A stretch of DNA of 64,000 nt from an uncultured Coriobacteriia bacterium (GCA_902475535.1 CABRZR010000006.1:22720-86719); one strand, 5' to 3'. Positions 29,792 to 46,328 are shown, counted from the stretch's first letter. Numbers and translations: made by a program. Notes: generated by a model from the letters alone, not told the origin.

Positions 29792-29809
29792 ACCACCAGC
29801 GTCCTTGCC

Positions 29810-31118: not shown

Positions 31119-31130
31119 GGCAATCGCTCC

Positions 31131-31880
31131 TTACAAGAGGCTGAATCCGCCCTCTTCGTAGATGGTCTCGCCAGTGATGAACGAGGCATCATCCGAGGCG
31201 AGGAAGAGGGCGACGCTTACCATCTCCTCGATCTCGCCATAGCGACCAAACGGCATCTTTGCCAGGAAGGCGGCGTTGCGCTCCGGGTCGAACCTCGTGC
31301 CTTCCGTGATGCGAGTCTTCGAGGTGCCCGGGGCAACGGCGTTGACGTGAATGTCGTATTTGGCGAGCTCAAGCGCCATAACCTGCGTGAGCATGCTCAC
31401 GGCTGCCTTGGAAGGGCCGTAGGGCGTGATGCCGCCGATGGTCTTGCGTGCGCTATTGGAGCTCGTGTTGACGATATATCCCTTGATGCCCTTATCGACC
31501 ATCGTACGCGCAACGGCCTGGCCCACGTAAAACACGCCGTTCAGATTCGTGTCCATGACGTCGAGCCAGCCTTCCTGACTGCACTCGAGGAAAGGCTGAC
31601 GATGGGTGATGCCCGCATTGTTCATGAGGACGTCGATATGACCAAACTCCTCGATGACCTTGGCGACGCTCTCCTGCACCTGCCCATAGTCGCGAACATC
31701 ACAGTGCATGCAATACACGCGCTCGTTATCGGCGTAGACCTCTTCCATGGTATCGTCTTCGATATCGAAGACGATGACCTGTGCGCCTTCCCTCACGAGC
31801 TGCTCGGTCATGCCACGACCCAGACCATTGGCACCGCCGGTCACCAGCGCGATTTTGTCGATGAACCTTTGCTTTTCCAT
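31131..31880 (-). CDS. Short-chain dehydrogenase/reductase (classical SDR, 249 aa)
   Basis: Motifs ALVTGGANGLG, NNAG and catalytic YGPSKAA. It lies 12 nt upstream of the SnoaL_4 gene. Confidence 0.88.
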   Translation of the reverse strand: MEKQRFIDKIALVTGGANGLGRGMTEQLVREGAQVIVFDIEDDTMEEVYADNERVYCMHCDVRDYGQVQESVAKVIEEFGHIDVLMNNAGITHRQPFLECSQEGWLDVMDTNLNGVFYVGQAVARTMVDKGIKGYIVNTSSNSARKTIGGITPYGPSKAAVSMLTQVMALELAKYDIHVNAVAPGTSKTRITEGTRFDPERNAAFLAKMPFGRYGEIEEMVSVALFLASDDASFITGETIYEEGGFSLL

Positions 31881-31898
31881 GGATGCTTCCTTTCGGTC

Positions 31899-32795: not shown

Positions 32796-32810
32796 GGTTC
32801 TCTCCATTCA

Positions 32811-32852
32811 GGAAAAAGCGGCCGCATCGAATTCCATATCCGATGCGGCCGC
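32811..32852 (-). terminator. Strong intrinsic terminator between the EthD gene and the SDR genes
   Basis: Perfect 12-bp stem GCGGCCGCATCG / CGATGCGGCCGC with an 11-nt loop. On the minus strand it is followed by TTTTT. It lies 10 nt after the EthD stop and its T-tract ends 15 nt before the SDR start. Confidence 0.75.
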
Positions 32853-32861
32853 ATGAATCGA

Positions 32862-33563
32862 CTAGTCTTCCAGTTCGACGGGAACCGCTTCGACAAAGTA
32901 GGTCGTCACCGTTCCGATGAACTCGGCGGCATGGACGCTTGCGCGCTTCTTGAAGCCCACGCTGCCATAGCATTCGTCGAAGGCTTCCATGTCCTCGAAC
33001 CAGAACTCGACCATACCCTCGACCGGGAGATCCTTATAGTGGACCTCTTCGTCACCGATGCAGCGGTCGATCACCAGGTTCTGGTTGTAGCCGCAGCATC
33101 CTCCCATCAGTTCCACCAGTATGGAGTGGACGTACCACCACTCGAAGTGGAAGGTCATGGCATCGACGCCCTCGGCGCGGTCGCAGAACGAGACGCGCTT
33201 GATGATGTCGCGACCCTTGAGGTACTCGGGGACGAGCTTGTCGAATTTCCTGACCGTGACAAGCGCGGAGATTGGCTTTTCCACGATGGGTTCGAGCACG
33301 TCGCGAAGGGCATCGCCGGCCTGGGTCATGCACTTTGCCATGTCCCCGTAGCTGTCGAAGATCATCTCTATGAAACCGTCGATGTCAATCGCCCCGCGAC
33401 ACAGATGCGAACGCTGCTGCTTATCGGTCACGAAGTTGATCTCGCACTTGCGCAGCAGGGGCATCTTGGCGATTACGTCACGCGCCTCCCCCATCATCAC
33501 CGCGCGGAATTCCTCTTCGGAAATTCCCTCCTTGCACTTGAGTAGATTAATTCTGGAAATCAT
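32862..33563 (-). CDS. Tandem EthD-domain protein (paralog 2 of 3)
   Basis: 233-aa ORF starting MISRINLLKCKEGISEEEFRAVMMGE. Its second half (IIKRVSFCDRAEGVDAMTFHFEWWYVHS...YNQNLVIDR...LPVEGMVEFWFEDMEAFDECY) repeats the EthD pattern. Confidence 0.65.
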   Translation of the reverse strand: MISRINLLKCKEGISEEEFRAVMMGEARDVIAKMPLLRKCEINFVTDKQQRSHLCRGAIDIDGFIEMIFDSYGDMAKCMTQAGDALRDVLEPIVEKPISALVTVRKFDKLVPEYLKGRDIIKRVSFCDRAEGVDAMTFHFEWWYVHSILVELMGGCCGYNQNLVIDRCIGDEEVHYKDLPVEGMVEFWFEDMEAFDECYGSVGFKKRASVHAAEFIGTVTTYFVEAVPVELED

Positions 33564-33588
33564 GACTACTCCCCTTCTTCAAGGTTGT

Positions 33589-34851
33589 TTAGTTCTCGGC
33601 ATTCTTGGCTTCCATCATGGCAGCATCGCGAGCCTTCATCTTGTTGTAGATCGGCAGACCGATTGCAAGCAGGATGATTGCGATGATGCAAAGGACGCCC
33701 AGGATGGGAAACGCCGTGCTATAGCTGCCCGTTGCGGCGAGCGTGTTGGCGGAGAGCATGGGGCCGATGACGGCCGCAAGCGCATAGCCCCAGTACATGA
33801 AGCCATAGTTCTGGCCCATGTTGGCCGGGCCAAAGGCATCGCCAGTAAGCGAAGGCATGATGGCCATGATGCCGCCAAAGCACATGCCCAGCACGATCGA
33901 CTCGATGATGAAGGGCATCGTGGAATCGGTGTTTCCATAGAGGAACAGGTGAATCACCGCGGTGATGCCGATAACGATGAACAGCGTCTGGAATCGTCCG
34001 ATCTTGTCGGAGAGAGTGCCAAAGCCAAAGCGTCCGGCGGCATTGGCAACGGCGAAGATGCTGACCATCATGGCGCCCGTCGCGGCATCCATGCCCGCTT
34101 GCGTCTGGCCGACGAGGGATGCGGTACCGAGCATGAACACGCCCGTGCATGCGGTGAGCGCGAATACGATGACCATGATCCAGAAGAGCGGGGTCTTCAT
34201 CATCTCGGGCGTAGTGTAGCTCCTGCGGTTCTTGGCCTCCTCGTCAACGGGAGGATTCCAACCCTCGGGCTGGTAGTCTGCAGGCGGCAGAACGTAGCAA
34301 AGCCACGAGAAGATGAGGAACATGACGATGCTGAACGCGCCCACGACCATGAACGAGGGCATGGGACCGATTGCCTGCACGATCATGTTTCCGACCGGGG
34401 CAGTCCACAGCGGCCACAAGGCCATCGTGGCGAGCGAGATACCGTTGACGAGGCCCTTCTTGTCCGGGAACCAGCGCGTGGTCAAGGCCAGCGACGTGTT
34501 GTAGATAATGCCATCGGCAAAGCCGACGATGATGCCGAAGGTGATGAGCAGCATGATGGGATTCGTTGAAAAGCCCGTGAGAATCCAGCCGATGCCAAAG
34601 ACGATACCGCTGACGAGCATGATCTTGTGAGCCGCGAACTTGCGCTGGAACCAGCCGCCAACGGGGCCACCCGCAAAGCCAATGACAACGATGGCGAGCG
34701 TGTAGGCGAGTGCCACGATCTGCGGCGACCAGCCAAACTCGGCCATCATGGGTTTCTGAAAAATGCTGTAGCAATTCAATGATGCGGTGATCGCTCCGCA
34801 CATTGCCGCGCCGACGAGAACTACCCAGCGCGATTTAGGCTTCATTGCCAT
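33589..34851 (-). CDS. MFS transporter, oxalate/formate-antiporter (OFA)-like subfamily
   Basis: The ORF was trimmed to the ATG at 34849-34851, 4 nt after GGAGGA, giving 420 aa. It has 12 predicted TMs and a TTRWFPDKKGL motif shared with the partial MFS at the window end. Confidence 0.8.
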   Translation of the reverse strand: MAMKPKSRWVVLVGAAMCGAITASLNCYSIFQKPMMAEFGWSPQIVALAYTLAIVVIGFAGGPVGGWFQRKFAAHKIMLVSGIVFGIGWILTGFSTNPIMLLITFGIIVGFADGIIYNTSLALTTRWFPDKKGLVNGISLATMALWPLWTAPVGNMIVQAIGPMPSFMVVGAFSIVMFLIFSWLCYVLPPADYQPEGWNPPVDEEAKNRRSYTTPEMMKTPLFWIMVIVFALTACTGVFMLGTASLVGQTQAGMDAATGAMMVSIFAVANAAGRFGFGTLSDKIGRFQTLFIVIGITAVIHLFLYGNTDSTMPFIIESIVLGMCFGGIMAIMPSLTGDAFGPANMGQNYGFMYWGYALAAVIGPMLSANTLAATGSYSTAFPILGVLCIIAIILLAIGLPIYNKMKARDAAMMEAKNAEN

Positions 34852-35152
34852 GTGTTCCTCCAATATAGCTTCCGAAAGATTACGTGCATGCGAAAGGCAT
34901 CGCCTTTCCCCCAAACCGAGACCCCTCCTCCTTTCGTTTCGACGTGCAAACCGTTCTATACGCACATGATTCCGATGCTGCGATACGTGCTGATGTGCCG
35001 GAGTCAATTGATGCCGAAACTGGACTAGATCCTCACCGCTGCGTTGCGGTTCATGCCAAGAAGCCAGAGAAAACAATGAGGAAGATGACCCCACTTGCCT
35101 TGAAGGTATCCCTCCTCACGAGATGTATGCTATGAGGGTTTCAAGATGACCT

Positions 35153-35174
35153 CAATAACGCACTTAAAAGTAAG
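35153..35174 (-). promoter_or_regulatory. Cluster motif copy S1 (CAATAACGCACTTAAAAGTAAG on the plus strand)
   Basis: It matches S3 at 22 of 23 positions including the following A. It sits in the 360-bp non-coding region upstream of the OFA-MFS gene. In gene orientation it reads CTTACTTTTAAGTGCGTTATTG. Confidence 0.55.
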
Positions 35175-35211
35175 AAGCTGCCGTATACGTAAGTACGACA
35201 GCCAAATTTGG

Positions 35212-36609
35212 CTACAGAAAGCCAAGTCCTCTCATGAGCATGACGCTGGCGATGAGAAGGGCTGCGGTGATGACCGCATAGGGCCCGTTCCACTTGAGAC
35301 TCGCCTCCATGGGAGATGCCTGCACCATGTCCGCAACGGCGATGACATTTGCCGAGGCGGGGCAGATCGTATTGCCCAACGCCCAGCTCATCGACAGGAC
35401 AAGCGCAAGGTACGCAGCCGATATTCCGCACAGCGCAGGGTCAATGGCACCTCCTATGACGGCCGTTGCCACGATGGGATGAATCCCCGCCGCACAGGTA
35501 AGCAAGACGATGATGACGATGGCCGTCGTCAGAAGCAGCACGCTTTGACCGGTGGTGAGCACGAGGGCTTGCGCGATGACATCCCCGATGCCCGAATATC
35601 CGATGCTCTGGGCGAGCATGCCCGCTCCCGCGAAGAGGACGATCTGGTTCTTGGCACCGGGAAGCTTCTTCTCGAAATACGCGTTCTTGAGCTCCTTGCG
35701 ATATAGGGAAAACCGCCTGATGAAGAGCATCCAGACAAAGGGCCACACCAGCGATGCCATGGCGACGACGATGATGGCCGAAAGGCCGAACAGTTGGGAA
35801 ACCAGGGCGATGAAGACTATGAGGAGCACGGAGAAGACGGCGAGCTCCGCCACCTTTGCCTTGTCGATGCTTCCGGGGGCATCCTTGGATGCACTCGCGC
35901 CATCGTCCATCGCGGAAGCCTTCCCACCCAGCTTGCGCGAGAGCACCGTCATCAGGATGCCGACGCCCTCTGCGACAAGAGCGCAAACGATTGCGCAGGG
36001 GGCAAAGCTCACCCACTCTGCGCTTGTCACCGAAACGACCAGAGCGATGGTCGCCGACGTGGGCGCCCATATCATGCACGTGACGAACCCGCGCGCAAGG
36101 GCCGTCCCCAGGAGCCTCTTGTTGGCTCCCAGACGGCTTTCACGCGACATCTCGAACGTAAGCGGTACGGCGGCGATGCTTATGAGCGCACCGGCTACAG
36201 CCGCCATGCCGCTTACGAGCGAATAGTATCGTCCCTCCGAGTTGGCATATCGCGCAAACAGGCTCCTCAGCGATTCGTTATAGCCCCCATGTTGGACGGG
36301 TATGCCAATAAGCGGAATCAGGATGAACATGACGATGAGGTCGGCGTTCTTGCGAAGCGCACGCACCCATTCCTCGACCGGTGCCTGGGCATACAGCAGC
36401 AACCCGACGCTTATGACAATGAGGACGATGCCGATGAGCCGTGACGATCCCGTCGAGACGAAAATGCTCATCACGAGCACCACGACCATGAGGACAGCGT
36501 TCACGTCATCGAGCAGCGGAGCATGCAGAAAGACGTTGATGATGTAGCACACGGCGAAGCACAGGGTGATGACGCTACGCGTGGTACGTATGGCAACGGG
36601 CTCTTTCAT
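35212..36609 (-). CDS. Polytopic permease of unknown specificity (two-repeat ion-transporter-superfamily-like architecture)
   Basis: 465-aa ORF behind the RBS AAGGGAGAGGG. It has about 12 hydrophobic helices split by a central hydrophilic loop (LGGKASAMDDGASASKDAPGSIDKAK). I recognise no named motif. Confidence 0.6.
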   Translation of the reverse strand: MKEPVAIRTTRSVITLCFAVCYIINVFLHAPLLDDVNAVLMVVVLVMSIFVSTGSSRLIGIVLIVISVGLLLYAQAPVEEWVRALRKNADLIVMFILIPLIGIPVQHGGYNESLRSLFARYANSEGRYYSLVSGMAAVAGALISIAAVPLTFEMSRESRLGANKRLLGTALARGFVTCMIWAPTSATIALVVSVTSAEWVSFAPCAIVCALVAEGVGILMTVLSRKLGGKASAMDDGASASKDAPGSIDKAKVAELAVFSVLLIVFIALVSQLFGLSAIIVVAMASLVWPFVWMLFIRRFSLYRKELKNAYFEKKLPGAKNQIVLFAGAGMLAQSIGYSGIGDVIAQALVLTTGQSVLLLTTAIVIIVLLTCAAGIHPIVATAVIGGAIDPALCGISAAYLALVLSMSWALGNTICPASANVIAVADMVQASPMEASLKWNGPYAVITAALLIASVMLMRGLGFL

Positions 36610-36714
36610 CGGACCCTCTCCCTTTGAAAAGGCAAACGAGAACTGTAAGGGCGCAGGAGGACGTTTCCCCCTGCGCCCATATGACGGCGCGAGACGAACT
36701 AATCTGTGGCAGGG

Positions 36715-38034
36715 CTAGCTATTAACCGGTGTACCGTCCTTGCGGTAGTAGCGTTTCATGAGGAAGATCGCGACGAGAATCGAAACGACGTCAGCGGCGA
36801 TGATGAAGAAGGCAAGGGAGATCGCATTTCCCGTCCCGGCGATAATCGCGGTCGCAATGGCCGGGGCCATGCCGCCAAAAACCGCGGCCGCAAGGTTGTA
36901 GGCGAGACCGACGCCGCTGTTGCGCGTCTCGGTGGGATACACCTCGGATGCCGCCGTGGCCACCGCCACCGCGTTGAGTGACTGGAAGGGCAGCAGACAT
37001 GCCAGGGCGCAGATCATGATCAGCACGGCATGCCCGTTGATGACGGCCCAGAAGACCGGGTAGGCAAGTACGATGAATCCCAGGCACGCGATGATGACAG
37101 ACTTCCTGCGCCCGAACTTGTCCGCGAACATGCCCGCAAACGGGCAGAGGACCAAATATACAGCAACGACGGCGGTATTGACGATAAAGCCCTCGAGCAT
37201 GGTCCCGCCGACGAACTCCTTGATATAGGTAGGCAGGTAGGTCACCAACAGGTAGTAGGAGACGCTGGTGCCGGCAAGCAGGCCGATGTTGGTGATCATG
37301 GCGACCCAATGCTTCTTGAAGAGGACCTTGACGGGCGTGTGATCTTCCTCGGTGGCCTTCTTCTGCTCCTTCATCTTCTCGAACTCGGGAGGCTCGGGCA
37401 CGCTTTTGCGCAGGTAGACGCCATAGATGGCGACGACGATGCCGATGAGGAACGGAATGCGCCAACCCCAGGCGTAAAGATCGGGCTGGGATAGCACCGA
37501 CGTGCAAATCAGACCGGTGATCGATCCGATGAGCATGCCGACGCCGACACTGAACGGCTGCCAGCTGACGAGGAAGGAGGTGTTCTTGCCGTTGTTGAAC
37601 TCAGAGATGAACGTGAGGGCGGAACCGAACTCGCCGCCAGTCGCCAGGCCCTGCAGCAAGCGCAGGACCGTGAGCAGGATGGGTGCCATGATGCCAATCT
37701 GCTCATAGGTCGGCAGACATCCCATGAGCATGGTGCATATGCCTATCGCCATGATGGTGACGGTGAGCGACTTCACGCGCCCGTGCTTATCCGCGTAGGC
37801 TCCCATGATGAGGCCGCCAATGGGGCGCACGACAAAGCCGACGCCAAACACCATGAAACTCATGAGAATGCCGACAACGGGATCTTCGGACGTGAAGAAC
37901 TCCGCGGAAATGACAACCGCAAAGTAACCGTATAGGCCATAGTCGTACCATTCCAGGACGTTACCCAGGCATCCAGAGAGTATCGACTTGAAAAGCGATG
38001 CGTTCTTCTGGGCGGGTTGAACTTCTTTTGCCAT
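36715..38034 (-). CDS. MFS transporter, metabolite:H+ symporter (MHS)-like
   Basis: The ORF was trimmed to the ATG at 38032-38034, after AAAGGGGAG, giving 439 aa. LEWYDYGLYGYFAVVIS resembles the EW(Y/F)DF..YG motif of MHS carriers (ProP/KgtP/ShiA type). Confidence 0.75.
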   Translation of the reverse strand: MAKEVQPAQKNASLFKSILSGCLGNVLEWYDYGLYGYFAVVISAEFFTSEDPVVGILMSFMVFGVGFVVRPIGGLIMGAYADKHGRVKSLTVTIMAIGICTMLMGCLPTYEQIGIMAPILLTVLRLLQGLATGGEFGSALTFISEFNNGKNTSFLVSWQPFSVGVGMLIGSITGLICTSVLSQPDLYAWGWRIPFLIGIVVAIYGVYLRKSVPEPPEFEKMKEQKKATEEDHTPVKVLFKKHWVAMITNIGLLAGTSVSYYLLVTYLPTYIKEFVGGTMLEGFIVNTAVVAVYLVLCPFAGMFADKFGRRKSVIIACLGFIVLAYPVFWAVINGHAVLIMICALACLLPFQSLNAVAVATAASEVYPTETRNSGVGLAYNLAAAVFGGMAPAIATAIIAGTGNAISLAFFIIAADVVSILVAIFLMKRYYRKDGTPVNS

Positions 38035-38227
38035 GCGTGCTCCCCTTTCGTAAAGACCTCCATGCGCCCCAAAACAAACTGCTCCATGTGCGGGAGTCCG
38101 ATATCGCGAGGCGCCTTCCCATCTGCATCTACGCCCGTGCAAAGCATTGCGATCGACACGATCGGGTTACGGGAAGATGCATGTATCCCATCTAAGGGAA
38201 ATGGTATGGCCGGCAGGAAACGGCGCT

Positions 38228-38249
38228 CAATAACGCACAAATAAGTTAG
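38228..38249 (-). promoter_or_regulatory. Cluster motif copy S2 (CAATAACGCACAAATAAGTTAG) with adjacent perfect palindrome CTTACCAAAAGGTAAG (38252-38267)
   Basis: It shares CAATAACGCAC with S1. In gene orientation it reads CTAACTTATTTGTGCGTTATTG, with a TAAC-N10-GTTA dyad. It lies between the ene-reductase stop (38333) and the MHS start (38034). Confidence 0.5.
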
Positions 38250-38332
38250 TCCTTACCAAAAGGTAAGATATGGAGGGGAAAGGCTCCCCGCCTCGAGCAA
38301 GACGAGAAGTCCTCGAGCAGTGGATCAAGCGA

Positions 38333-40393
38333 CTAAATCCGGCATGCAGCCTCTCTGCCATCGATGATGGCGTGCTTGACGAACGCGTTATCGCCTCCCA
38401 GCGTGGAGCCAATCTCCACGACCTCGACACCCGCGTTCCTGAGCTCATCGCAAAACGCGGCATCGCGCTTCTCGGGAAGCATGACGAGAACGCTGTCGCA
38501 GCCAAAGGTGCGCTCCCTGCCATCCACCTCCGCAATGACGAGACCCTTGCGGATCTCCTTGCATGTGGCATTGCGCACGACCTCGACGCCGTTTTCCTCG
38601 AACCAGGGCTCCAAGCGCACCTTGTAGGGCACGGGAACCAATCCGCCGATGTCATCGTCTTCCGAGAGCAGCGTGACGTCCTTTCCGCAGTGGGCCATGA
38701 ACGTTGCGCACTGCGCGCCCTCGGCACCGGCACCCAAAACGACTATCTTCTTGCCCACGGGCATGAAATGCCTGCTCGCCTTGTGTATGAACTCGGGACT
38801 GAAGAGCTTGAGCGGGAGTTTCGCGAGCTTCGAAAGCCCGGGGATGGTGTACACGTTGCTGCCGTCGATACCGGGAATGTCGGGAATCAGATATGGCGAG
38901 CTGTTGGCGAGCATGACCACATCGGGTTTTTCTCGCCTGACGAGCTCTGCCGAGACCTCCTCGTTGAGATGCACCCGCACGTCGTACTTGCCCACCATGG
39001 TGGTGAGGTAATCGTAGATGGGCATGATGTCCTCGACCTTGTTGCCCTTGATCATCGATGCCAGCTTGAGCCTGCCACCCAGCTCGCCGGACCTCTCGTA
39101 CAAGTCCACGTCATGACCGCGAGCCGCCGCGTCAATGGCCGCCTGCATGCCAGCAGGACCTCCGCCGATGACCATTACCTTCTTCCTTGTCTCAGCGGGC
39201 TTGAGCTCGAGCTCCTTCTCGCGCCCGAGCGCGGGATTCACGCGGCAGATACGCGGTGAGACGAGCGGGTCCTGACACGACCCGCAGCGATTGCACCGGC
39301 GAATCTCGTCGATGCGTTCCTCCTTCACCTTGTTGGGAAACTCGGGGTCTGCCCATAGATAGCGGCCAAAGCCGATGATATCGGCATAGCCTTCCTCGAG
39401 CGCGCGCTCGCCCTTGACCTCGTCCATACGACCGACGCACACGACAGGCACCTTGACGGCATCGTGGATGTACTTTGCCGCCGGAAGCAGCAGTCCCATG
39501 TCCTCGTAGTCCTTCATGTAAGGACGCATGTGGGGCTCGGGGTCGGGATACGGAAAGTAATCCGGAATGAAGCGGAACGGAAGCTCGCCATAACCATATC
39601 CGGTCACGCTGATGTATTGGTATCCAATCATCTCGAGCGCTATGGCGGTGTCGCGCGCCATGTCGGGCGTGATACCGTTATTTCCCGTCAAGGGCGAGAA
39701 CTCGATGCCGTTGATGCGCGTGCCGATGAGAAAGTCGGGACCGCATGCCTGCCGAATCATCTGGTAGAGCTCTGCCATGACACGCGTGCGATTGGCCACG
39801 TTCTCGAAGGCATACTCGTCATCGCGCTTGTTCCATATGGGGCTGAGGAAGCTGTTGAGCAGGTATCCATGTGCGGCATGCACCTCGACACCGTCAAATC
39901 CGGCCTTCTTCATGCGCACGGCGCCCTCGACGATGAGCTTCTCCTTCTCGTGAATCTCCTCGACCGAGAGCCCGCGTGTCGCGCGCCCCTCGGGTTCGGG
40001 AATGGGAAGGTCCTCGGTCTCAATTGTCGACGAGCTGAAGGGTCGCCCTTCGCCGAGCACGGCCGCGGAAGGCCCACCATGGTGGAGCTGGCCTATGATA
40101 TAGCTGTCATGGCGATGCACGGCCTCCGCGAGCTCGGTCAAGCCCGGGATGAACTTGTCATCCCAGACGTTGCAGTAGCGCCCGGGCATGTCATCCCACA
40201 TAACGCCGCCGATGACCACGGCCGCCGCGCCGCCTGCGGCGATGCTCTCGTACAAACCGATTGCCGCGCTTCCATCGGCGGTGCCGTCATCGTTCCAGCG
40301 AAACGTTGACTGGCCCGTCTTCATGATGCGGTTCTTGAAGATAATCTTCGGCGTGATCTCCAGCGGAGACATAAGTTTTTCGAAGCCACCCAT
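38333..40393 (-). CDS. FadH/OYE-type Fe-S flavoenzyme (NADH:flavin oxidoreductase / enoate-reductase family), paralog A
   Basis: 686-aa ORF. The OYE TIM-barrel signature is HAAHGYLLNSFLSPIWNKRDDEY. The Cys cluster is CNRCGSCQDPLVSPRIC. Two dinucleotide folds are present (VMVIGGGPAGMQAA and VVLGAGAEGAQCA). Confidence 0.88.
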   Translation of the reverse strand: MGGFEKLMSPLEITPKIIFKNRIMKTGQSTFRWNDDGTADGSAAIGLYESIAAGGAAAVVIGGVMWDDMPGRYCNVWDDKFIPGLTELAEAVHRHDSYIIGQLHHGGPSAAVLGEGRPFSSSTIETEDLPIPEPEGRATRGLSVEEIHEKEKLIVEGAVRMKKAGFDGVEVHAAHGYLLNSFLSPIWNKRDDEYAFENVANRTRVMAELYQMIRQACGPDFLIGTRINGIEFSPLTGNNGITPDMARDTAIALEMIGYQYISVTGYGYGELPFRFIPDYFPYPDPEPHMRPYMKDYEDMGLLLPAAKYIHDAVKVPVVCVGRMDEVKGERALEEGYADIIGFGRYLWADPEFPNKVKEERIDEIRRCNRCGSCQDPLVSPRICRVNPALGREKELELKPAETRKKVMVIGGGPAGMQAAIDAAARGHDVDLYERSGELGGRLKLASMIKGNKVEDIMPIYDYLTTMVGKYDVRVHLNEEVSAELVRREKPDVVMLANSSPYLIPDIPGIDGSNVYTIPGLSKLAKLPLKLFSPEFIHKASRHFMPVGKKIVVLGAGAEGAQCATFMAHCGKDVTLLSEDDDIGGLVPVPYKVRLEPWFEENGVEVVRNATCKEIRKGLVIAEVDGRERTFGCDSVLVMLPEKRDAAFCDELRNAGVEVVEIGSTLGGDNAFVKHAIIDGREAACRI

Positions 40394-40413
40394 GGATTGA
40401 TTCCTCCAATGTC

Positions 40414-41160
40414 CTAGAACAGCGTGAAGCCGCCATCCTCAACCAAGGTCTCGCCGGTAACGTAGGAAGCGTCGTCACTTGCCAGGAACAGCGCGACGTT
40501 TGCGGCCTCCTCGGGAGCGCCATAGCGGCCCATGGGAATGTTGGCGAGAAACTGCGCGTTGCGCTCGGGGTCATTCCTCGTGCCCTCGGTAATGCGCGTC
40601 ATGCTCGTGCCCGGCCCGAAGGCATTGACGCGGATTCCATGTTCGGCAAGCTCCAAGGCGAGCCATTTGGTCAGCTGGGACACACCCGCCTTGCTGGCGG
40701 CGTACGCGCCGGTGTTCTTGGAGACCGTGCGCGACGTGCATGAGCTCGTGTTGACGATGGCACCCTTGATTCCGCGTTCGATCATCGACTTCGCCACGGC
40801 CTGGTCCATCCAAAAGCATCCATTGAGGTTGATGTCGATGACGCGCCGCCATTCCTCCTCGGTCGTGCTCTGCACGCTCCCGCGTTTGATGATGCCCGCG
40901 TTGCTGAAAAGGATGTCGATATGCCCGTATGCCTCGAGCACCTCGTCTACCACCTTGTTGCACATGGCGTAATCGGCAACGTCGAGGGGATAGATCGTGA
41001 TGTTCTCGTTGCCCTCGAATTCGCGTACCAACGTGTCACCCTCGATATCGAGCGCCGCAACCTTGGCACCCTCTTCGAGAAGGCGGCAGACAATGCAATG
41101 GCCAATGCCGTTTGCCGCGCCCGTCACCACGGCCACTTTATCCTCGAACCTCTTGCCCAT
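40414..41160 (-). CDS. Short-chain dehydrogenase/reductase (248 aa)
   Basis: Motifs AVVTGAANGIG, SNAG and catalytic YAASKAG. It lies 20 nt upstream of ene-reductase A and 24 nt downstream of the HxlR gene. Confidence 0.88.
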   Translation of the reverse strand: MGKRFEDKVAVVTGAANGIGHCIVCRLLEEGAKVAALDIEGDTLVREFEGNENITIYPLDVADYAMCNKVVDEVLEAYGHIDILFSNAGIIKRGSVQSTTEEEWRRVIDINLNGCFWMDQAVAKSMIERGIKGAIVNTSSCTSRTVSKNTGAYAASKAGVSQLTKWLALELAEHGIRVNAFGPGTSMTRITEGTRNDPERNAQFLANIPMGRYGAPEEAANVALFLASDDASYVTGETLVEDGGFTLF

Positions 41161-41184
41161 CGTTTCTCCTTACCTTTAGCTGGT

Positions 41185-41676
41185 CTATTCTTCTGCCTCG
41201 TCCTCGTCACACGCGGTGTCGAAGTACCAGACAATGTGCTCGCGCGTCTTATCGATCTTGCCGTCCTCACCCCCGGTGCCGTATTCGAGCTTCCCATCGT
41301 TGAGGGAGCCCTTCGTTTGCTTGAGTGCCTCAACCGAGAAGTTGCGGTGCACGACGCCCCAATCGCGAATGAGATACAGGAGGTTTGCCATGCTGATGCC
41401 GTCTGGCGTGAGGAGATAGTCGACCCACAGGGGCTTGTCTTCGACCACGACACGTTCGAGCATGCCCGTCTCCTCGAGCTCGTTGAGATGCTGCGAGAAC
41501 ATCTTGTCCGATATCTTGTACGGGATGATTTTCTTGAGCTCGCCGTAGCGCGCACGTTGATGAGGTTGCAAGCTCAGGTACCAGATGATGAACGGCTTCC
41601 ACTTGCCACCCAAGATCTTTGTGAGGACCTGCGTAAGCATGCATGAGGTTAACCTGTCGATACTGTTAGGATCCAT
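41185..41676 (-). CDS. HxlR-family winged-helix transcriptional regulator with an approximately 60-aa C-terminal extension
   Basis: The ORF was trimmed to the ATG at 41674-41676, 8 nt after GGGAGG. The HxlR signature is LGGKWKPFIIWYL...RYGELKKIIPYKISDKMFSQHLNELEETGMLERV. It is the first gene of the HxlR-SDR-ene-reductase run. Confidence 0.85.
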   Translation of the reverse strand: MDPNSIDRLTSCMLTQVLTKILGGKWKPFIIWYLSLQPHQRARYGELKKIIPYKISDKMFSQHLNELEETGMLERVVVEDKPLWVDYLLTPDGISMANLLYLIRDWGVVHRNFSVEALKQTKGSLNDGKLEYGTGGEDGKIDKTREHIVWYFDTACDEDEAEE

Positions 41677-41947
41677 CACAATCGCCTCCCGAGCCACGCC
41701 ATTACCTCGACCGGCCTCTGGTCAAAGACACTCACGGAATCCCTGCGCAATAGAGATGCAAGGAGATTATTATTGCCCCCCCCTGAAAGCAATCACAGAG
41801 CCAGGGGGTTTGTGGTAGATACAGGACCGAAGATATGTCCTCATCGACGCCTGCCCTTCCCCGTCTATAACGACATGGGGCCGGACTCGTCGAGCCCGGC
41901 CCAAACCACCACACTTCAAGCTAGGTTCGCTATCTGGCAATGGCAAG

Positions 41948-42643
41948 CTAGAGTATGTCGTGTACCTCGGTAAGATACGTGTTAATCGCACCGATGAACT
42001 CGCTGCCGTGCTGCGACGTCCTCTTGAACTCGGGAGAGTCGTAGCATTCGTTGAAGGCATCCATGTTCTCGAACCAGAACTCGACGACGCCCTCGACAGG
42101 AAGCTCGTCATAATGGACGGAAACGCCGTTGACGATGCGATCGATCACGAGATTCTGCGCATAGCCAACGTAACCCGGCATGGTGTGCACCATTTCGGTG
42201 TGAACGTCCCACCACTGGTACATCCACTCCTCGGCGCTCACGCCCTCGGCTCGACCCATGAACGACACGCGCTTGATAAGCGGCTTGTCGCCATTCAACA
42301 AGTATTTGGGAGTGTGTTTCACGAACTTCTTCACGCAAACGAGAATGGGATTATGCGGGTCGGCGAACTTCGGAACGTCATCGGCACCCTTGCCGTCTAA
42401 CGACATGACGCCCTCGACCATGTCGCCATAGCTATCAAACTGCAGCTCGGAATAGCCATCGATGATGATGGGACCCTGGCCCAAGGGATGACGATGCTCG
42501 TTGTCGCATACCGCGTGCTGAGAGTAATGGCGCAGGTTCTTCATCTCCGCGGCGATGGGACCATGGACGTTGAGCCAGTAATCCTTGAATTCTTCCTGCG
42601 TCGTGCCCTCTTTGCGCTTCAAGAGACCCATTCTGCTAATCAT
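41948..42643 (-). CDS. Tandem EthD-domain protein (paralog 3 of 3)
   Basis: 231-aa ORF. The N-terminus MISRMGLLKRKEGTTQEEFKDYWLNVHGPIAAEMKNLRHYSQHAV closely follows the EthD-family consensus as I recall it. A second EthD-like half follows. It is divergent from ene-reductase B. Confidence 0.7.
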   Translation of the reverse strand: MISRMGLLKRKEGTTQEEFKDYWLNVHGPIAAEMKNLRHYSQHAVCDNEHRHPLGQGPIIIDGYSELQFDSYGDMVEGVMSLDGKGADDVPKFADPHNPILVCVKKFVKHTPKYLLNGDKPLIKRVSFMGRAEGVSAEEWMYQWWDVHTEMVHTMPGYVGYAQNLVIDRIVNGVSVHYDELPVEGVVEFWFENMDAFNECYDSPEFKRTSQHGSEFIGAINTYLTEVHDIL

Positions 42644-42719
42644 GTGTGACCACTCTCCTTAGACACCTTCATGTAGTCCTGCCTTCTTCCAAGATTCTAG
42701 AAACGGGATTACGCCGAAA

Positions 42720-42741
42720 CAATTACGCACTTAAAAGTAAG
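42720..42741 (-). promoter_or_regulatory. Cluster motif copy S3 (CAATTACGCACTTAAAAGTAAG)
   Basis: It lies about 80 nt upstream of the EthD paralog-3 start. In gene orientation it reads CTTACTTTTAAGTGCGTAATTG, with a TTAC-N10-GTAA dyad. Confidence 0.55.
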
Positions 42742-42791
42742 AGGAGACATGGGAAGTCCCCCGTCATCTCATCGAAGGCTGCGTAGAAGCG

Positions 42792-42813
42792 CTAACAATA
42801 AAGTGCGTACTTG
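42792..42813 (+). promoter_or_regulatory. Cluster motif copy S4 (CTAACAATAAAGTGCGTACTTG), oriented toward ene-reductase B
   Basis: It is inverted relative to S3, 50 bp away, and about 75 nt upstream of ATG 42888. Its orientation relative to the downstream gene is the same as for S1-S3. Confidence 0.5.
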
Positions 42814-42887
42814 GAATGCCCCTATCACGCTCCCTATGATGACAGCCGCACGAACGCATAGTCCCGTGTTGGCCGTCGAAAGAGGAT

Positions 42888-44954
42888 ATGATGCAAGAAT
42901 TCGAACATCTCATGTCACCCATCGAAATCGCCCCGAGCTTCAAGATGAAGAACAGGATCATGAAGGCGCCTCAGTCAACATGGAGGTGGAATCTCGATGG
43001 TACCGCCGATGGCAGCGCGGGCATTGACCTATACGAGAGCATGGCCAAGGGCGGTGTCGGTGCCATCGACATAGCCGGCATCAACTGGGAGCCGCCGGTA
43101 GGTGGCGGCATCTACCTCTGCGCCTACGATGACAGGTTCATCTCGGGCCTCACCGAGCTTGCCGAGCGTCTGCACAAGTACGATTGCCGCGTGATCGGCC
43201 AGCTCCATCATGGCGGTCCGCTCGCTCCCGTGCAAGGCGGCGGCAGGCCCATCTGCGCCTCGACGCTCGAAATAGAGGACCTTCCCACCCCTCCTCCCGA
43301 GGGACTCGCGACCCATGGTCTCACGCACGACGAGCTCATCGAGAAACGCCAGCTCATCGTCGATGCAGCCGTACGCTTATGGAAGGCCGGTTTTGATGGC
43401 GTGGAAATCCACGCGGCCCACGGTTACTTCCTCAACAGCTTCCTCAGCCCCATTTGGAACCACCGCGATGACGAGTACGGCCCCCAGACGGCCGAGAGCC
43501 GCACGCGCATCATGAAGGAGATTCATGACATGGTACGCGACGCATGCGGGCCGGACTTCGTCATAGGCACGCGCATCAACGGCCAGGAATGGTCTCCGCT
43601 CGTCTCGGGCGGCATCACGCCCGAGCTCGCCGTCAAGAATGCCAAGGCCCTCGAATCCTATGGTTACCAGTACATAAGCGTATCGGGATATGGATACGGC
43701 AAGCTCCCGTTCCGCTACTGTCCCGACTACTTCCCCTACCCCGATCCGGAATCCTTCATGGAACCCTATATGGAGGATTTCAACGATCTTGGCATCCTCA
43801 TGCCGGGAATCCGAGCCGTCAAGGAAGCCGTTAACGTTCCGGTCATCGGCGTCGGCCGCATGGACGAGGTCAAGGGCGAGCGCGTGCTGCGAGAGGGATA
43901 TGCCGATATCATCGCCTACGGGCGCTACCTCTGGGCCGATCCCGAGTTCGCCAACAAGGTCAAGGAGGGTCGTACCGACGAGATTCGCCGGTGCAATCGC
44001 TGCGCGAGCTGCGAGGATCCCGTCACGTCCCCTCGCATCTGCCGCGTGAACCCCGCGCTCGGACGCGAACGCGAACTCGAGCTCAAACCCGTCGAGACAA
44101 GCAAGAAGGTCATGGTGATCGGCGGTGGCACGGCGGGAATGCAATGTGCGCTCGATGCCGCCGAACGTGGATTCGACGTGACGATATACGAGAAGAAGGG
44201 CGAACTCGGTGGCCGCATCAAGCTCGCCTCCATGATAAAGGGCGACAAGGACGAAGACGTCATGCCGCTTTTCGATTACCTCACCACCATGATCGAGAAG
44301 TCCAACGTCACCGTCAAGCTCAAGACCGAAGTGACATTGGACCTCGTGAAACGCGAGAAACCGGACATCGTCGCGCTCGCAGACAGCTCTCCCTACTTCA
44401 TTCCCGACATCGAGGGCATCGACCGAAAGAACGTCTTCACGATACCGGCAATGACCAAGCTTGCCTCCATCCCCATGAAGATGTTCGGTCCCAGAAAGCT
44501 CGCGACCATGAGCGAAAAGGTCTTTCCCGTCGGCAAGAAGATCGTGATTCTGGGTGCCGGCGCCGAGGGAGCCCAATGCGCGACGTTTTTGGCTCATCGC
44601 GGGAAGGAAGTCGTCCTCCTTGCCGAGACCGAAGACGTTGGCGGCCTCGTGCCCCAAAAGTACAAGGTACGCCTCGTTCCGTGGTTCGAGGAGCATGGCG
44701 TGCGCATCGTCTATAACTCGCAACTGCTGCGCATCGAGAAGAAGTCGGTGACTGTCGAAGTCGATGGGAAAGCCGAGGAAATTGCCTGCGATAGCGTGAT
44801 GGTCATGCTTCCGGAACAACATGACCCCAGCTTCTACGAACAACTCGTGCAGATCGTGCCCGAGGTCTACGAAATCGGCTCGACACTCGGAGGCGACAAC
44901 GCCTTCCTGAAACATGCGATGCTCGACGGACGCTTGGCGGCCGTGAAGATGTAA
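42888..44954 (+). CDS. FadH/OYE-type Fe-S flavoenzyme, paralog B
   Basis: 688-aa ORF. By eye, 41 of the first 66 aligned residues are identical to paralog A. It has the same Cys cluster spacing (CNRCASCEDPVTSPRIC) and the same dinucleotide folds (VMVIGGGTAGMQCA, VILGAGAEGAQCA). Confidence 0.88.
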   Translation: MMQEFEHLMSPIEIAPSFKMKNRIMKAPQSTWRWNLDGTADGSAGIDLYESMAKGGVGAIDIAGINWEPPVGGGIYLCAYDDRFISGLTELAERLHKYDCRVIGQLHHGGPLAPVQGGGRPICASTLEIEDLPTPPPEGLATHGLTHDELIEKRQLIVDAAVRLWKAGFDGVEIHAAHGYFLNSFLSPIWNHRDDEYGPQTAESRTRIMKEIHDMVRDACGPDFVIGTRINGQEWSPLVSGGITPELAVKNAKALESYGYQYISVSGYGYGKLPFRYCPDYFPYPDPESFMEPYMEDFNDLGILMPGIRAVKEAVNVPVIGVGRMDEVKGERVLREGYADIIAYGRYLWADPEFANKVKEGRTDEIRRCNRCASCEDPVTSPRICRVNPALGRERELELKPVETSKKVMVIGGGTAGMQCALDAAERGFDVTIYEKKGELGGRIKLASMIKGDKDEDVMPLFDYLTTMIEKSNVTVKLKTEVTLDLVKREKPDIVALADSSPYFIPDIEGIDRKNVFTIPAMTKLASIPMKMFGPRKLATMSEKVFPVGKKIVILGAGAEGAQCATFLAHRGKEVVLLAETEDVGGLVPQKYKVRLVPWFEEHGVRIVYNSQLLRIEKKSVTVEVDGKAEEIACDSVMVMLPEQHDPSFYEQLVQIVPEVYEIGSTLGGDNAFLKHAMLDGRLAAVKM

Positions 44955-45041
44955 GTGCGCTCGGTCTGGGGCATATAAGAGCGCAGCGTCCCAAGAGCAT
45001 AGGCGCCACAGGTGTTGGCCTGCCAGCCAGCACGTCACTCC

Positions 45042-45087
45042 GGGCGGGTGAGGGTCCCTCCTCCTCACTCGCCCCCTCCTTTTTTTA
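45042..45087 (+). terminator. Probable intrinsic terminator of ene-reductase B
   Basis: The stem GGGCGGGTGAGG / CCTCACTCGCCC pairs at 11 of 12 positions. It is followed by CCTCC and then a T7 run (45080-45086). Confidence 0.5.
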
Positions 45088-45089
45088 CG

Positions 45090-45488
45090 TTACCAACCTA
45101 CCGTGCGCTTGGAGCCATCTGCCAGAGACTCGAAGGTCGCCGTCGCGTTCTTGAAGTACAGAACGATGGTGTTGTCGTCGTTCTCGTCGTACATGCCACG
45201 CAGCGCGGGATAGTTGTCGAGCATGTGCTTCTTGGCCTCGACACTGTCATCGGGTACGAGCTCGCCGGAAAGACGCAGCCACTCAGGGCCGACACAGGCA
45301 CATATCTCGACCTGCGGATGATCCACAATCTGCCGGTAGACCTTCTTGGACTTGCCCGTCTGGATATACAGCTTGCCGTCGTACAGGTCGACGGTGCCGA
45401 AGGGACGCACACGCGGCTCGCCGTTCTCGACCGTTGCCAGGTAATACGTGGGTGCCTTTTCCTTGAGAAACTCGTAGACCTCGTCCAT
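45090..45488 (-). CDS. Pyridoxamine-5'-phosphate-oxidase-like FMN-binding split-barrel protein
   Basis: The ORF was trimmed to the ATG at 45486-45488, 6 nt after AAGGAG, giving 132 aa. The sequence begins MDEVYEFLKEKAPTYYLATVENGEPRVRPFGTVDLYDGKLYIQTGKSKKVYRQI, typical of the small PNPOx-like family. Confidence 0.7.
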   Translation of the reverse strand: MDEVYEFLKEKAPTYYLATVENGEPRVRPFGTVDLYDGKLYIQTGKSKKVYRQIVDHPQVEICACVGPEWLRLSGELVPDDSVEAKKHMLDNYPALRGMYDENDDNTIVLYFKNATATFESLADGSKRTVGW

Positions 45489-45569
45489 GGAACGCTCCTT
45501 CTTGTGTTTGCTCACTGCAATCATGCCGCCAAAAGGACGACGTGCAGATGCAGTATAGGACAATCCGCC

Positions 45570-46328
45570 CTACAAGAGCGCACCAAACAAATCACTTGCG
45601 AGCTTGATGGCAAAGAGCACGATGACCACGAGCATGATGGGACGCGTGATTGACGAGCCCTTCTTGTGGAAGAGCGTCGCGCCAATCCAGTTGCCCGCGA
45701 TGTTGAAGAGACCCGCTACGAGACCGAGGACGACGATGGCGTTTCCACTCGCCAGAAAGACCACGAGCGCGGCGAGGTTGGTCGAGAGGTTAATCGCCTT
45801 GGTTGTTCCCTGCGCCTGCTCGAGCGGAAGATGCGCAAGCGTGGTAAGCAGCAGAATAAGGAACGTACCCGTCCCGGGCCCGTAAAAGCCATCGTAGATG
45901 CCAATCGCGAATGCTATCAATCCCGTAAGCGCGAAGGTCCTCGTCCGCGAAAGCGGGCTTTCGGCGAACCCATCCAGATCGCGCGTTCGGAGCACGATAT
46001 AGGCAATCAGGGGTAGCGACACGAGCATGAAGACCATGAGCACCACGCTGTCGGCCACGAGGGCGAGGTTTGAACCCAGGAACGAGCCGACCAGACCGCA
46101 GGCGACGCCGAGTATGACGAGCCACTTCACCATGTAGCCGTATATCACGTAGCGAATGGTGGCAACGGTGGTGCCCATCGTGCTCGAGAGCTTGTTGGTG
46201 GCAATCGCGTTGTGGACGGGAAGGCCGGCAAAGAAATAGGCAGGGAGGGAAATCAGGCCCCCTCCGCCGGCTATGGCATCGACCAGGCCCGCCAAGAAGA
46301 CGAGCGGGCAGACGACGAGATACTCCAT
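45570..46328 (-). CDS. TauE/SafE-family anion exporter-like membrane protein
   Basis: The ORF was trimmed to the ATG at 46326-46328, which removes the overlap with the upstream gene. The product is 252 aa with MEYLVVCPLVFLAGLVDAIAGGGGLISLPAYF and a second GxGxF-type repeat (IYDGFYGPGTGTFL). Confidence 0.75.
   Translation of the reverse strand: MEYLVVCPLVFLAGLVDAIAGGGGLISLPAYFFAGLPVHNAIATNKLSSTMGTTVATIRYVIYGYMVKWLVILGVACGLVGSFLGSNLALVADSVVLMVFMLVSLPLIAYIVLRTRDLDGFAESPLSRTRTFALTGLIAFAIGIYDGFYGPGTGTFLILLLTTLAHLPLEQAQGTTKAINLSTNLAALVVFLASGNAIVVLGLVAGLFNIAGNWIGATLFHKKGSSITRPIMLVVIVLFAIKLASDLFGALL

Follow-up and report, generated by a model that had tools for sequence, protein, structure and literature searches.

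The window considered here is a 64,000-nucleotide stretch of DNA from an uncultured Coriobacteriia bacterium (GCA_902475535.1 CABRZR010000006.1:22720-86719), with positions counted from its first letter. Its G+C content is about 58-60%, and its nearest relatives are uncultured human-gut Coriobacteriia metagenome-assembled genomes (MAGs). The window encodes two FadH-like ene-reductases (ERs), ER_A and ER_B, which an earlier note on this DNA had singled out for a noncanonical spacing of their Fe-S cluster cysteines. Both open reading frames (ORFs) were recovered with exactly the coordinates and lengths (686 and 688 residues) reported there. We find that the pair belongs to a clade without a characterized member and lies in a gene cluster that is conserved in other genomes. 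With moderate confidence, we read ER_A and ER_B as paralogues with a neutral loop variant that probably act in a bai-like, coenzyme A (CoA)-independent reductive pathway for a hydroxylated carboxylic acid, a pathway that would include two distinct C=C reductions. The two genes and their Cys clusters are:

38333-40393, minus strand: ER_A, a 686-residue ORF for an Fe-S flavoenzyme with an old yellow enzyme (OYE)-type flavin mononucleotide (FMN) barrel, a four-Cys linker, and flavin adenine dinucleotide (FAD)/NAD(P)H domains
39245-39295, minus strand: Cys cluster of ER_A, CNRCGSCQDPLVSPRIC, with C367, C370, C373, and C383 as predicted [4Fe-4S] ligands
42888-44954, plus strand: ER_B, a 688-residue ORF for a paralogue of ER_A, apparently monocistronic
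43992-44042, plus strand: Cys cluster of ER_B, CNRCASCEDPVTSPRIC

The two enzymes are clear paralogues, as had been proposed. BLASTP aligns them over their full length with 445 of 688 positions identical (65%), three gap positions, and an E-value of 0; at the N terminus, where 41 identities in 66 residues had been counted by eye, a recount of the aligned residues gave 42 of 66. In both proteins the N-terminal barrel matches Pfam Oxidored_FMN (PF00724; 2.5e-43 for ER_A and 7.7e-45 for ER_B), and the C-terminal region matches Pyr_redox_2 (PF07992; 2.8e-20 for ER_A) and PF00070 (1.2e-13). The dinucleotide motifs GGGPAG (residues 410-415) and GAGAEG (residues 554-559) are intact in both, and the ERs carry clade-specific insertions, GYGYG and PDYFPYPDPEP. 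The best sequence matches in the PDB are 2-naphthoyl-CoA reductase (NCR; 1.7e-45) and Escherichia coli FadH (6.4e-41), with trimethylamine and histamine dehydrogenases ranking lower (1e-34 to 1e-32). An AlphaFold2 model of ER_A built from a 69-sequence alignment (mean predicted local distance difference test score, pLDDT, 93.1; predicted template modeling score, pTM, 0.92) superposes over its full length on NCR (template modeling score, TM, 0.83/0.86), FadH (0.81/0.83), trimethylamine dehydrogenase (TMADH; 0.80), and histamine dehydrogenase (0.81).

The sequence-level defining features of the Fe-S flavoenzyme superfamily were all found, and with the predicted model they establish this architecture for ER_A and ER_B. 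Their domain order is that of FadH, NCR, the clostridial 2-enoate reductases, BaiCD/BaiH, BilR, DZNR, and IsmB, and presumably they share the electron path of these enzymes as well. By homology, electrons would pass from NAD(P)H to FAD in the C-terminal domains, from there to the [4Fe-4S] cluster at C367/C370/C373/C383, then to FMN in the TIM barrel, and finally to substrate.

Both ERs carry the motif C-x2-C-x2-C-x9-C, with the Cys strings exactly as first quoted. In alignments, the ER_A cluster coincides with the cluster motifs of FadH, NCR, and TMADH, and its four cysteines are invariant across the 69 homologues, at identities down to 44%, so the pattern is not due to chance. The spacing that the earlier note gave for studied ene-reductases also holds up. 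In PDB alignments, FadH (CIGCNQACLDQIFVGKVTSC) and NCR (CTACNQGCFYYVFIDAIMGC) are both x2-x3-x11, and according to a 2024 review, the motif conserved in BaiH, BaiCD, BilR, and DZNR is CX2CX3CX11-13C (PMC11574389). The x2-x2-x9 spacing of ER_A and ER_B thus differs from the x2-x3-x11-13 of the characterized reductases. The solved structures are more diverse than this motif: TMADH is x2-x2-x12, and the spacing x2-x2-x11 is seen in two histamine dehydrogenases and in 6-HPON amine oxidase.

To place the spacing in the wider family, we ran a profile-free search over 1.84 billion cluster representatives, took the nearest 150 clusters at 50% identity, and counted the motif by means of a pattern tied to the C-x-x-N signature; 141 full-length proteins had an identifiable motif. 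The middle spacer was x2 in 108 of these and x3 in 30, and the last spacer ranged from 5 to 18, with modes at 11 (n=59) and 12 (n=35). The "canonical" motif therefore describes only a few studied enzymes, and x2-x2, which had been taken for an anomaly, is the majority state. The combination of x2 with x9 was found in only six of the 141 representatives, whereas among close homologues (the top 120 matches, with at least 44% identity) the last spacer was x9 in 107 of 118 and x10 in 11 of 118. The proposal of a separate subfamily marked by its Cys motif is thus borne out in one respect, in that x9/x10 is specific to an uncharacterized clade (clade I, described below), but not in the other, as the spacing is no real departure from the family. 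We regard x9 as a good clade marker that appears to reflect a clade-specific shortening of a freely length-variable loop, without evident mechanistic consequence. Motif spacing alone is an unsafe basis for defining subfamilies in this family.

It is very unlikely that the short Cys loop marks a distinct metal center (a [3Fe-4S] cluster, for instance, or a center whose potential or electron partner has changed) and thereby a mechanistically separate subfamily. Clade I does strictly keep x9/x10 together with the signature C-x-R-C-x-x-C-[EQ]-D-P, and the Cys linker is the best-conserved segment between ER_A and ER_B (82.5% identity, compared with 65% and 63% for the two halves), but high linker conservation fits a structural role at the domain interface. 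All four cysteines are kept, near relatives vary the spacer from 5 to 18 residues with the motif preserved, and the ER_A model superposes on FadH and NCR from end to end. The x9 loop is not evidence for different Fe-S chemistry.

The C-x2-C-x2-C start and the three-domain fold are also common to the ERs and the trimethylamine/histamine dehydrogenases, and an amine dehydrogenase activity of that type could be argued from the C-x2-C-x2-C-x11/12-C spacing of TMADH, histamine dehydrogenase, and 6-HPON amine oxidase and from matches of the ER_A model at TM 0.76-0.81. We consider such an activity extremely improbable and rejected this branch. The sequence match is weaker than that to the NCR/FadH side (1e-34 versus 1e-45), the last spacer is x9 rather than x11-12, both GGGPAG and GAGAEG are intact, and the neighboring genes encode SDRs (short-chain dehydrogenases/reductases) and dehydratase-like proteins, not amine metabolism. 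In TMADH, the region of these motifs binds only ADP. The ERs also lack the flavin-linking Cys: the flavin-proximal position, which we take to be equivalent to Cys30 of TMADH, is occupied by Ser29, a residue that is invariant or nearly so in the clade.

The predicted active site sets ER_A and ER_B apart from FadH. Residues 1-234 of ER_A, searched alone, find YqjM- and GkOYE-type OYEs as their best matches (3e-23 to 1.5e-20). The ER_A segment VEVHAAHGYLLNSFLSP aligns with IEIHAAHGYLIHEFLSP of YqjM, placing His172, His175, and Tyr177 over YqjM His164, His167, and Tyr169; at the position of HAAHGY in ER_A, FadH has MGSEGY and NCR has CAIVGY, so neither carries the His-x-x-His-Gly-Tyr of the ERs. 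His172 and Tyr177 are invariant. His175 is kept in at least 90% of an 11-sequence alignment and is unlisted in the summary of the 69-sequence alignment, and His/Asn variants occur. The FMN domain shares HAAHGYL-N-FLSP with YqjM and GkOYE, and hence a putative His/His substrate anchor and Tyr proton donor, the His-x-x-His/Asn and Tyr feature of the YqjM class of OYEs. YqjM and GkOYE are single-domain enzymes of about 340 residues that are reduced directly by NAD(P)H, whereas ER_A and ER_B add the Fe-S linker and the FAD/NAD(P)H domains.

As judged from these alignments, the ER active site is a YqjM-type OYE site and not that of FadH, and the expected substrate is therefore an α,β-unsaturated ketone, aldehyde, or acid rather than a dienoyl-CoA. 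In such a site, His172 and His175 would hold the carbonyl or carboxylate, a hydride would pass from FMN to the β-carbon of the α,β-unsaturated carbonyl compound, and Tyr177 would donate the proton. FadH sensu stricto was ruled out, since C-x2-C-x3-C-x11-C, a FadH-type active site, and an acyl-CoA context were not found; near the ERs there are no CoA-handling genes.

Other known families were considered and rejected as well. ER_A and ER_B score 291 and 287 bits on the BaiCD model (NF041087; cut-off 825), 303 and 289 bits on the model for long-form bilirubin reductase BilR (NF045599; cut-off 750), and 316 and 307 bits on that for mycofactocin OYE-2 (cut-off 793). Falling under every curated cut-off, they belong by these scores to no curated NCBIfam family. 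For the resveratrol reductase RER of Eggerthella lenta, a preprint reports very little similarity to the OYE and enoate reductase families and assigns it to a class of its own.

Scanning one genome for each GTDB species yielded 78 loci with relatives that are 32-98% identical, from which 113 ER ORFs were extracted; individual loci are referred to below by number (L002, L004, and so on). A neighbor-joining tree of 95 nonredundant ERs, with E. coli FadH as outgroup and 50 bootstraps, places the pair in clade I (100% bootstrap), which holds no characterized protein, FadH being the only characterized sequence in the tree. Clade I contains every x9/x10 protein and has H-x-x-H-G-Y in nearly all members. 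Within it, clade Ia (100%) comprises Coriobacteriia, Mailhella, Edwardsiella, and proteobacterial MAGs, and clade Ib (76%) comprises the second copies of Edwardsiella and the proteobacterial MAGs, an x10 group of Desulfovibrionaceae, and a Peptococcaceae pair. Clade II (100%), with x10-x12 spacing and the His/Asn site HAANGY, is sister to clade I (100% for I+II).

ER_A and ER_B fall together in one eight-sequence group (100%) nested within the Coriobacteriia part of clade Ia (100%). Orthologues of ER_B that are 85-88% identical occur in L002, L004, and L036, and copies of the ER_A type are limited to the window lineage, Eggerthella sp. CAG:298 (71%), and one gut bin (68%). This nested grouping and the narrow distribution of ER_A point to a recent duplication specific to this lineage, not to an ancient split.

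Pairing of ERs extends beyond the lineage in which this duplication is seen. Where the flank was long enough to tell (roughly 19 clade Ia loci), about 15 loci have another clade I/II ER no more than 8 kb away, and the identity of the partner changes with lineage: it is ER_A in the window lineage, a clade II enzyme in other Eggerthellaceae (including L036), and a clade Ib enzyme in Proteobacteria and one Mailhella. Paralogous displacement of this kind is an argument that two different ene-reductase activities are required in the pathway, and from it we infer two distinct C=C reductions, a sharper form of the two sequential C=C reductions suggested in the earlier note. The conserved pairing is compatible with both of that note's suggestions, two related substrates or two sequential reductions.

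The ER pair belongs to a cluster of ~15 kb (29810-44954) that also holds genes for three SDRs, three EthD-like proteins, a BaiE-like dehydratase, three organic-acid carriers, and an HxlR regulator:

29810-30622, minus strand: EthD3, 270 residues, Pfam EthD 9.2e-11; the last gene of the cluster
30627-31118, minus strand: putative SnoaL_4/NTF2 BaiE-like dehydratase, 163 residues, Pfam SnoaL_4 5.4e-24
31131-31880, minus strand: SDR3, 249 residues
31899-32807, minus strand: SDR2, 302 residues, with a 45-residue N-terminal extension that is conserved in orthologues
32862-33563, minus strand: EthD2, 233-residue tandem EthD-like protein, Pfam EthD 1.5e-07; 46% identical to EthD1
33589-35094, minus strand: MFS501, a monocarboxylate/OFA-type transporter of the major facilitator superfamily (MFS)
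35212-36609, minus strand: 465-residue membrane protein, a weakly DcuC-like carrier (NCBIfam DcuC 7.5e-07); syntenic
36715-38142, minus strand: MFS475, a metabolite/H+ symporter of the MHS family; TcuC-, ProP-, and ShiA-like
40414-41160, minus strand: SDR1, 248-residue classical SDR, Pfam adh_short_C2 5.6e-66; 20 bp upstream of ER_A
41185-41697, minus strand: HxlR regulator, Pfam HxlR 5.2e-17; first gene of the HxlR-SDR1-ER_A unit
41948-42643, minus strand: EthD1, 231-residue tandem EthD/MmlI-like ferredoxin-fold barrel; Pfam EthD 4.4e-24, MmlI 2.5e-07

The placement of the two ER genes is as originally described. On the minus strand, HxlR, SDR1, and ER_A follow one another in the same direction, separated by 24 and 20 bp, and ER_B diverges from EthD1 across a 244-bp spacer. 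An independent metagenome contig, L080, repeats this HxlR-SDR-ER_A/EthD1-ER_B arrangement; its gene call for HxlR is 151 residues long, which corresponds to a start at about 41640 in the window. By domain annotation, no β-oxidation or CoA genes lie within 29810-45563, and Pfam and NCBIfam identify no CoA ligase (BaiB) or CoA transferase (BaiF) domain among the cluster ORFs. MFS501 scores 353 bits on the NCBIfam model "L-lactate MFS transporter SfMCT," above the cut-off of 320, and has a homologue in Edwardsiella. MFS475 scores 372 bits on TIGR00883, under the cut-off, and is syntenic in L002, L004, L006-L008, and L036. A cluster look-up put the 686-residue ER_A and the 248-residue SDR1 in one 90% identity cluster, which looks like a merging artefact.

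Synteny, assessed by tblastn of the window proteins against the loci, extends well beyond the window lineage. Nearly the same gene set and order is found in three Eggerthellaceae genera, represented by Gordonibacter sp. An230, Rubneribacter badeniensis, and two Ellagibacter MAGs: HxlR, EthD, MFS475, the 465-residue carrier, EthD1, ER-II, and ER-Ia are followed by MFS501, an optional x3-type ER, EthD2, SDR2, SDR, SDR3, and SnoaL. The SDR2 orthologues in these clusters are 77-87% identical. A compact core, with ER-Ia, ER-Ib, two SDRs, two EthD proteins (241 and 273 residues, the latter the counterpart of EthD3), and an OFA-type MFS carrier, is present in Edwardsiella ictaluri, E. hoshinae, and two proteobacterial MAGs. 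In Edwardsiella this module is inserted beside nrdR-ribD (L021 5158-16723 in E. ictaluri ATCC 33202; L023 in E. hoshinae). In a Peptococcaceae MAG (L050 21-13409), a clade Ib ER pair and an SDR lie beside a tripartite ATP-independent periplasmic (TRAP) DctPQM carboxylate transporter and a sigma-54 activator. In all of these contexts, the transporters are of organic-acid type.

Several details of these loci stand apart from the shared core. The clade II ER that adjoins the Ia enzyme in Gordonibacter, Rubneribacter, Ellagibacter, and a mouse-gut Eggerthellaceae MAG (L006 5852-7975, L007 5786-7897, L008 5870-7969, and L036 174-2345; also L037-L039) has ER_A in its stead in the window, and a clade II ER is present as well in a bin labeled Subdoligranulum sp. 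CAG:314. Close relatives have an extra x2-x3-x11 Fe-S flavoenzyme inside the cluster (L002 5222-7135, L045 1320-3233, L005 10071-12011, and L007 11565-13529) that is not in the window; the one in L007 reaches 480 of the 825 bits that the BaiCD model sets as cut-off. An extra SDR between EthD1 and HxlR in L002, L004, and L036 is likewise not in the window. The Edwardsiella module looks like an inserted island, with a class I/II aminotransferase and an amino-acid permease as neighbors. The flank of L050 also encodes the α-subunit of an electron-transfer flavoprotein (ETF), an ETF-QO/FixC-like protein, and a metallo-β-lactamase-fold protein, and the ETF genes may hint at another source of electrons.

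The SnoaL_4 protein gives one clue to the chemistry of the cluster. Its matches in the PDB are three BaiE bile-acid 7α-dehydratases (1.6e-16 to 3.2e-15), by far its best solved relatives, as the next match follows only at 1.9e-05. BaiE residues Tyr30, Asp35, His83, Asp106, and Tyr126, whose catalytic roles have been described (PMC11110704), are all conserved in the alignment of the SnoaL_4 protein. Members of its family are 57-93% identical and occur in Eggerthellaceae only, among them Eggerthella sinensis and Ellagibacter; E. lenta has a truncated copy. The sole name given to them in sources is "NTF2 family protein."

The resemblance of the cluster to the bai operon of Clostridium scindens is broader than this one protein. 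Both combine two Fe-S flavoenzymes, one or more SDRs, an NTF2-type dehydratase with the BaiE catalytic residues, and one or more MFS carriers, and the order proposed for the cluster, oxidation, dehydration, reduction of two C=C bonds, and reduction of the ketone, would match as well. The window cluster differs in having no CoA ligase or transferase and in encoding ERs that are not BaiCD/BaiH orthologues. It has three EthD-like proteins where the bai operon has none, its host is a member of the Coriobacteriia rather than the Clostridia, and part of the distribution of the module, in Edwardsiella, is without the dehydratase.

It is possible to take this likeness literally, as a CoA-independent dehydroxylation of bile acids or steroids in which the BaiE-like protein dehydrates a 3-oxo-Δ4 hydroxysteroid acid and the ERs reduce the Δ6 and Δ4 bonds in the manner of BaiH and BaiCD. 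The BaiE match with its five residues, the bai-like gene content (PMC11574389), the monocarboxylate-type MFS501, and gut-associated hosts that include some bile-exposed taxa (Eggerthellaceae, Mailhella, and Edwardsiella) are all consistent with it. We nevertheless consider it quite unlikely. The ERs reach only 287-291 bits on the BaiCD model, BaiB- or BaiF-type CoA enzymes are missing from the cluster, the top SDR relatives include no hydroxysteroid dehydrogenase, the Edwardsiella and proteobacterial modules are without a BaiE-like gene, and no literature was found that links Coriobacteriia to 7-dehydroxylation.

The EthD-like proteins and the SDRs offer a different set of hints. EthD1 is predicted with high confidence (AlphaFold2, pLDDT 94.7) to be a tandem ferredoxin-like barrel. 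Its fold neighbors are an anthrone-oxidase-like protein (TM 0.64), the chalcone isomerase of Eubacterium ramulus (about 0.5), and, on one half, MmlI (4-methylmuconolactone methylisomerase; about 0.8). At 8-25% identity, these neighbors are cofactor-free enzymes of enol/enone chemistry. Such matches are generic for tandem barrels, and we take them as a scaffold-level hint only. The three classical SDRs have FabG, 2-deoxygluconate 3-dehydrogenase, gluconate 5-dehydrogenase, and butanediol dehydrogenase as their nearest solved relatives, with SDR1 closest to generic FabG and glucose dehydrogenase types.

The cluster could instead reduce a plant hydroaromatic or polyphenolic acid, for example by converting quinate or shikimate to cyclohexanecarboxylate or by acting on a compound of flavonoid or chalcone type, with the EthD-like proteins as isomerases resembling those of chalcone or muconolactone. 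In E. ramulus and Flavonifractor plautii, chalcone isomerase is coupled to an Fe-S enoate reductase. MFS475 belongs to a family of shikimate, tricarballylate, and proline carriers, the SDRs are nearest to sugar-acid dehydrogenases, and EthD1 has a fold like that of E. ramulus chalcone isomerase, anthrone-oxidase-like proteins, and MmlI. The Eggerthellaceae are known polyphenol converters (PMC11572103). Set against this, the EthD1 fold matches are generic (TM 0.5-0.64 at 8-15% identity), Edwardsiella, a fish and reptile pathogen, would be an odd host for a plant-compound pathway, and a literature search found no such pathway. We judge a plant-acid substrate to be unlikely, though not negligibly so.

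Regulatory features in the intergenic regions bear on how the genes of the cluster belong together:

42721-42740, minus strand: operator-like motif TTACTTTTAAGTGCGTAATT, upstream of EthD1 and kept at the equivalent place in L002, L004, L036, and L045
35154-35173, minus strand: second copy of the operator-like motif, upstream of the MFS501-EthD2 unit
42801-42812, plus strand: half-site variant AAGTGCGTACTT, which overlaps the -35 element in the promoter-like site of ER_B
42811-42840: promoter-like site TTGGAA-18-TATGAT of the plus-strand gene ER_B
41878-41902, minus strand: GC-rich hairpin 46 nt past the EthD1 stop, a likely terminator between EthD1 and the HxlR operon
45042-45074: terminator-like hairpin after ER_B

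The operator-like motif was first seen by eye in the spacer between ER_B and EthD1 and then tested. With up to two mismatches, the 12-mer AAGTGCGTACTT occurs six times in the window, three of them in intergenic regions of the cluster, and the extended imperfect palindrome TTACTTTTAAGTGCGT occurs exactly twice in the 64 kb, at the two operator-like positions above. The pattern AAGTGCGTWMTT gave 19 sites in 12 of 80 loci (L002, L004, L006-L009, L011, L012, L024, L036, L045, and L080). All are Eggerthellaceae cluster loci, and every site lies between genes, upstream of an EthD1, EthD2, MFS475, or MFS501 unit; by our estimate, about 0.5 matches would be expected by chance in roughly 1 Mb, counting both strands. 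The motif, cTTACTTTTAAGTGCGTwmTTG, stands about 35 nt upstream of the -10-like sequences TAGAAT, TAGCAT, or TATGAT. Its presence upstream of EthD1 and MFS501, with a half-site at ER_B, links ER_B and the rest of the cluster in a single regulon, and HxlR is the obvious candidate regulator of these sites.

Inverted-repeat scans of the intergenic regions returned only a terminator-like hairpin, and no riboswitch or other Rfam family reached its gathering score within 29000-46000. Further hairpins at unit boundaries lie after the 465-residue carrier and between EthD2 and SDR2. The latter (32818-32852, minus strand), a 15-bp, GC-rich stem with a T-run, located 10 nt before the SDR2 start, could be a terminator/attenuator or a stabilizing stem.

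An HxlR regulator as the first gene of the ER_A operon, together with the generic OYE His/His/Tyr site, also brings to mind a stress or detoxification function, in which an HxlR-type redox sensor would induce promiscuous ene/quinone reductases against electrophiles. In Bacillus, HxlR/YodB-type regulators control quinone and azo reductases. However, tight synteny across phyla with dedicated carriers, several SDRs, and dehydratase/isomerase-like proteins is typical of a pathway, and two or three different ERs are kept per cluster. A detoxification role appears highly improbable to us.

We therefore return to the bai-like, CoA-independent pathway as the preferred reading of ER_A, ER_B, and their neighbors. 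In this scheme, the carriers would import a hydroxylated, probably alicyclic, carboxylic acid, and an SDR would oxidize its hydroxyl group to a ketone. The BaiE-like and EthD-like proteins could then eliminate water or shift a double bond to give an enone or dienone, the two ERs would each reduce a different C=C bond, and an SDR would finally reduce the ketone. By analogy, the logic would be that of bile-acid 7-dehydroxylation minus the CoA steps.

Several observations weigh against this scheme. Clades I and II have no characterized member, and so we infer activity, cofactors, and substrate alike. The tree was built by neighbor joining with FadH as its sole characterized anchor, and BaiCD, BaiH, DZNR, BilR, and the clostridial and E. 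ramulus enzymes were compared through NCBIfam profiles and literature only. No hydroxysteroid dehydrogenase stands at the top of the PDB relatives of the SDRs, which are of the sugar-acid or FabG type instead. The Edwardsiella and proteobacterial modules have no BaiE-like gene, and dehydration by its product is therefore not part of the universal core. Finally, the HxlR-SDR1-ER_A operon is without the shared operator motif; ER_A may thus be regulated separately and could serve a substrate other than that of ER_B.

A broader reading goes further than the pathway preferred here, and we hold it as a tentative possibility that is less than probable. The clusters of Eggerthellaceae, Edwardsiella, Mailhella, and proteobacterial MAGs might together represent a new CoA-independent pathway of oxidation, dehydration or isomerization, double ene-reduction, and re-reduction that would dehydroxylate or saturate a host- or diet-derived alicyclic carboxylic acid, whether a bile/steroid acid or one of quinate/shikimate type. 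Two non-interchangeable clade I/II ERs would act on one C=C bond each, and the EthD-like barrels would be new cofactor-free enone isomerases or dehydratases. If true, this would extend bai-like chemistry to Actinomycetota and Pseudomonadota.

Fe-S flavoenzymes carry out well-known gut transformations, among them those that give rise to secondary bile acids, urobilinogen, equol, and coprostanol, and only about ten clades with known function are found among thousands of sequences (PMC7371122; bioRxiv 10.64898/2025.12.29.696961). The survey of Fe-S flavoenzyme clusters by Pascal Andreu et al. notes an expansion in Eggerthella and gives no function or motif analysis. Our literature search found no account of a clade I/II member or of such a cluster, and neither the steroid 5β-reductase and Δ6-reductase papers nor the IsmB preprint gives Coriobacteriia members or Cys motifs. 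The conserved cluster, rather than the ordinary Cys spacing, is the more interesting part of this locus and a credible lead to an undescribed gut transformation. With its cleanly delimited clade, its fixed partner genes, and a candidate regulator and operator, it is a testable candidate for a missing gut transformation, and cultured carriers exist in Rubneribacter badeniensis, Gordonibacter sp. An230, Eggerthella sinensis, and Edwardsiella ictaluri.

Beyond the cluster, a PNPOx-like FMN-binding split-barrel protein (45090-45563, minus strand) is encoded convergently with ER_B and adjoins it on contig L080 too. On the other side lie genes for an MFS-CBS fusion (23374-25374, plus strand), a heavy-metal P-type ATPase (25423-27711, minus strand), and a MerR regulator with a DUF554 membrane protein (28575-29099, plus strand), all apparently unrelated.

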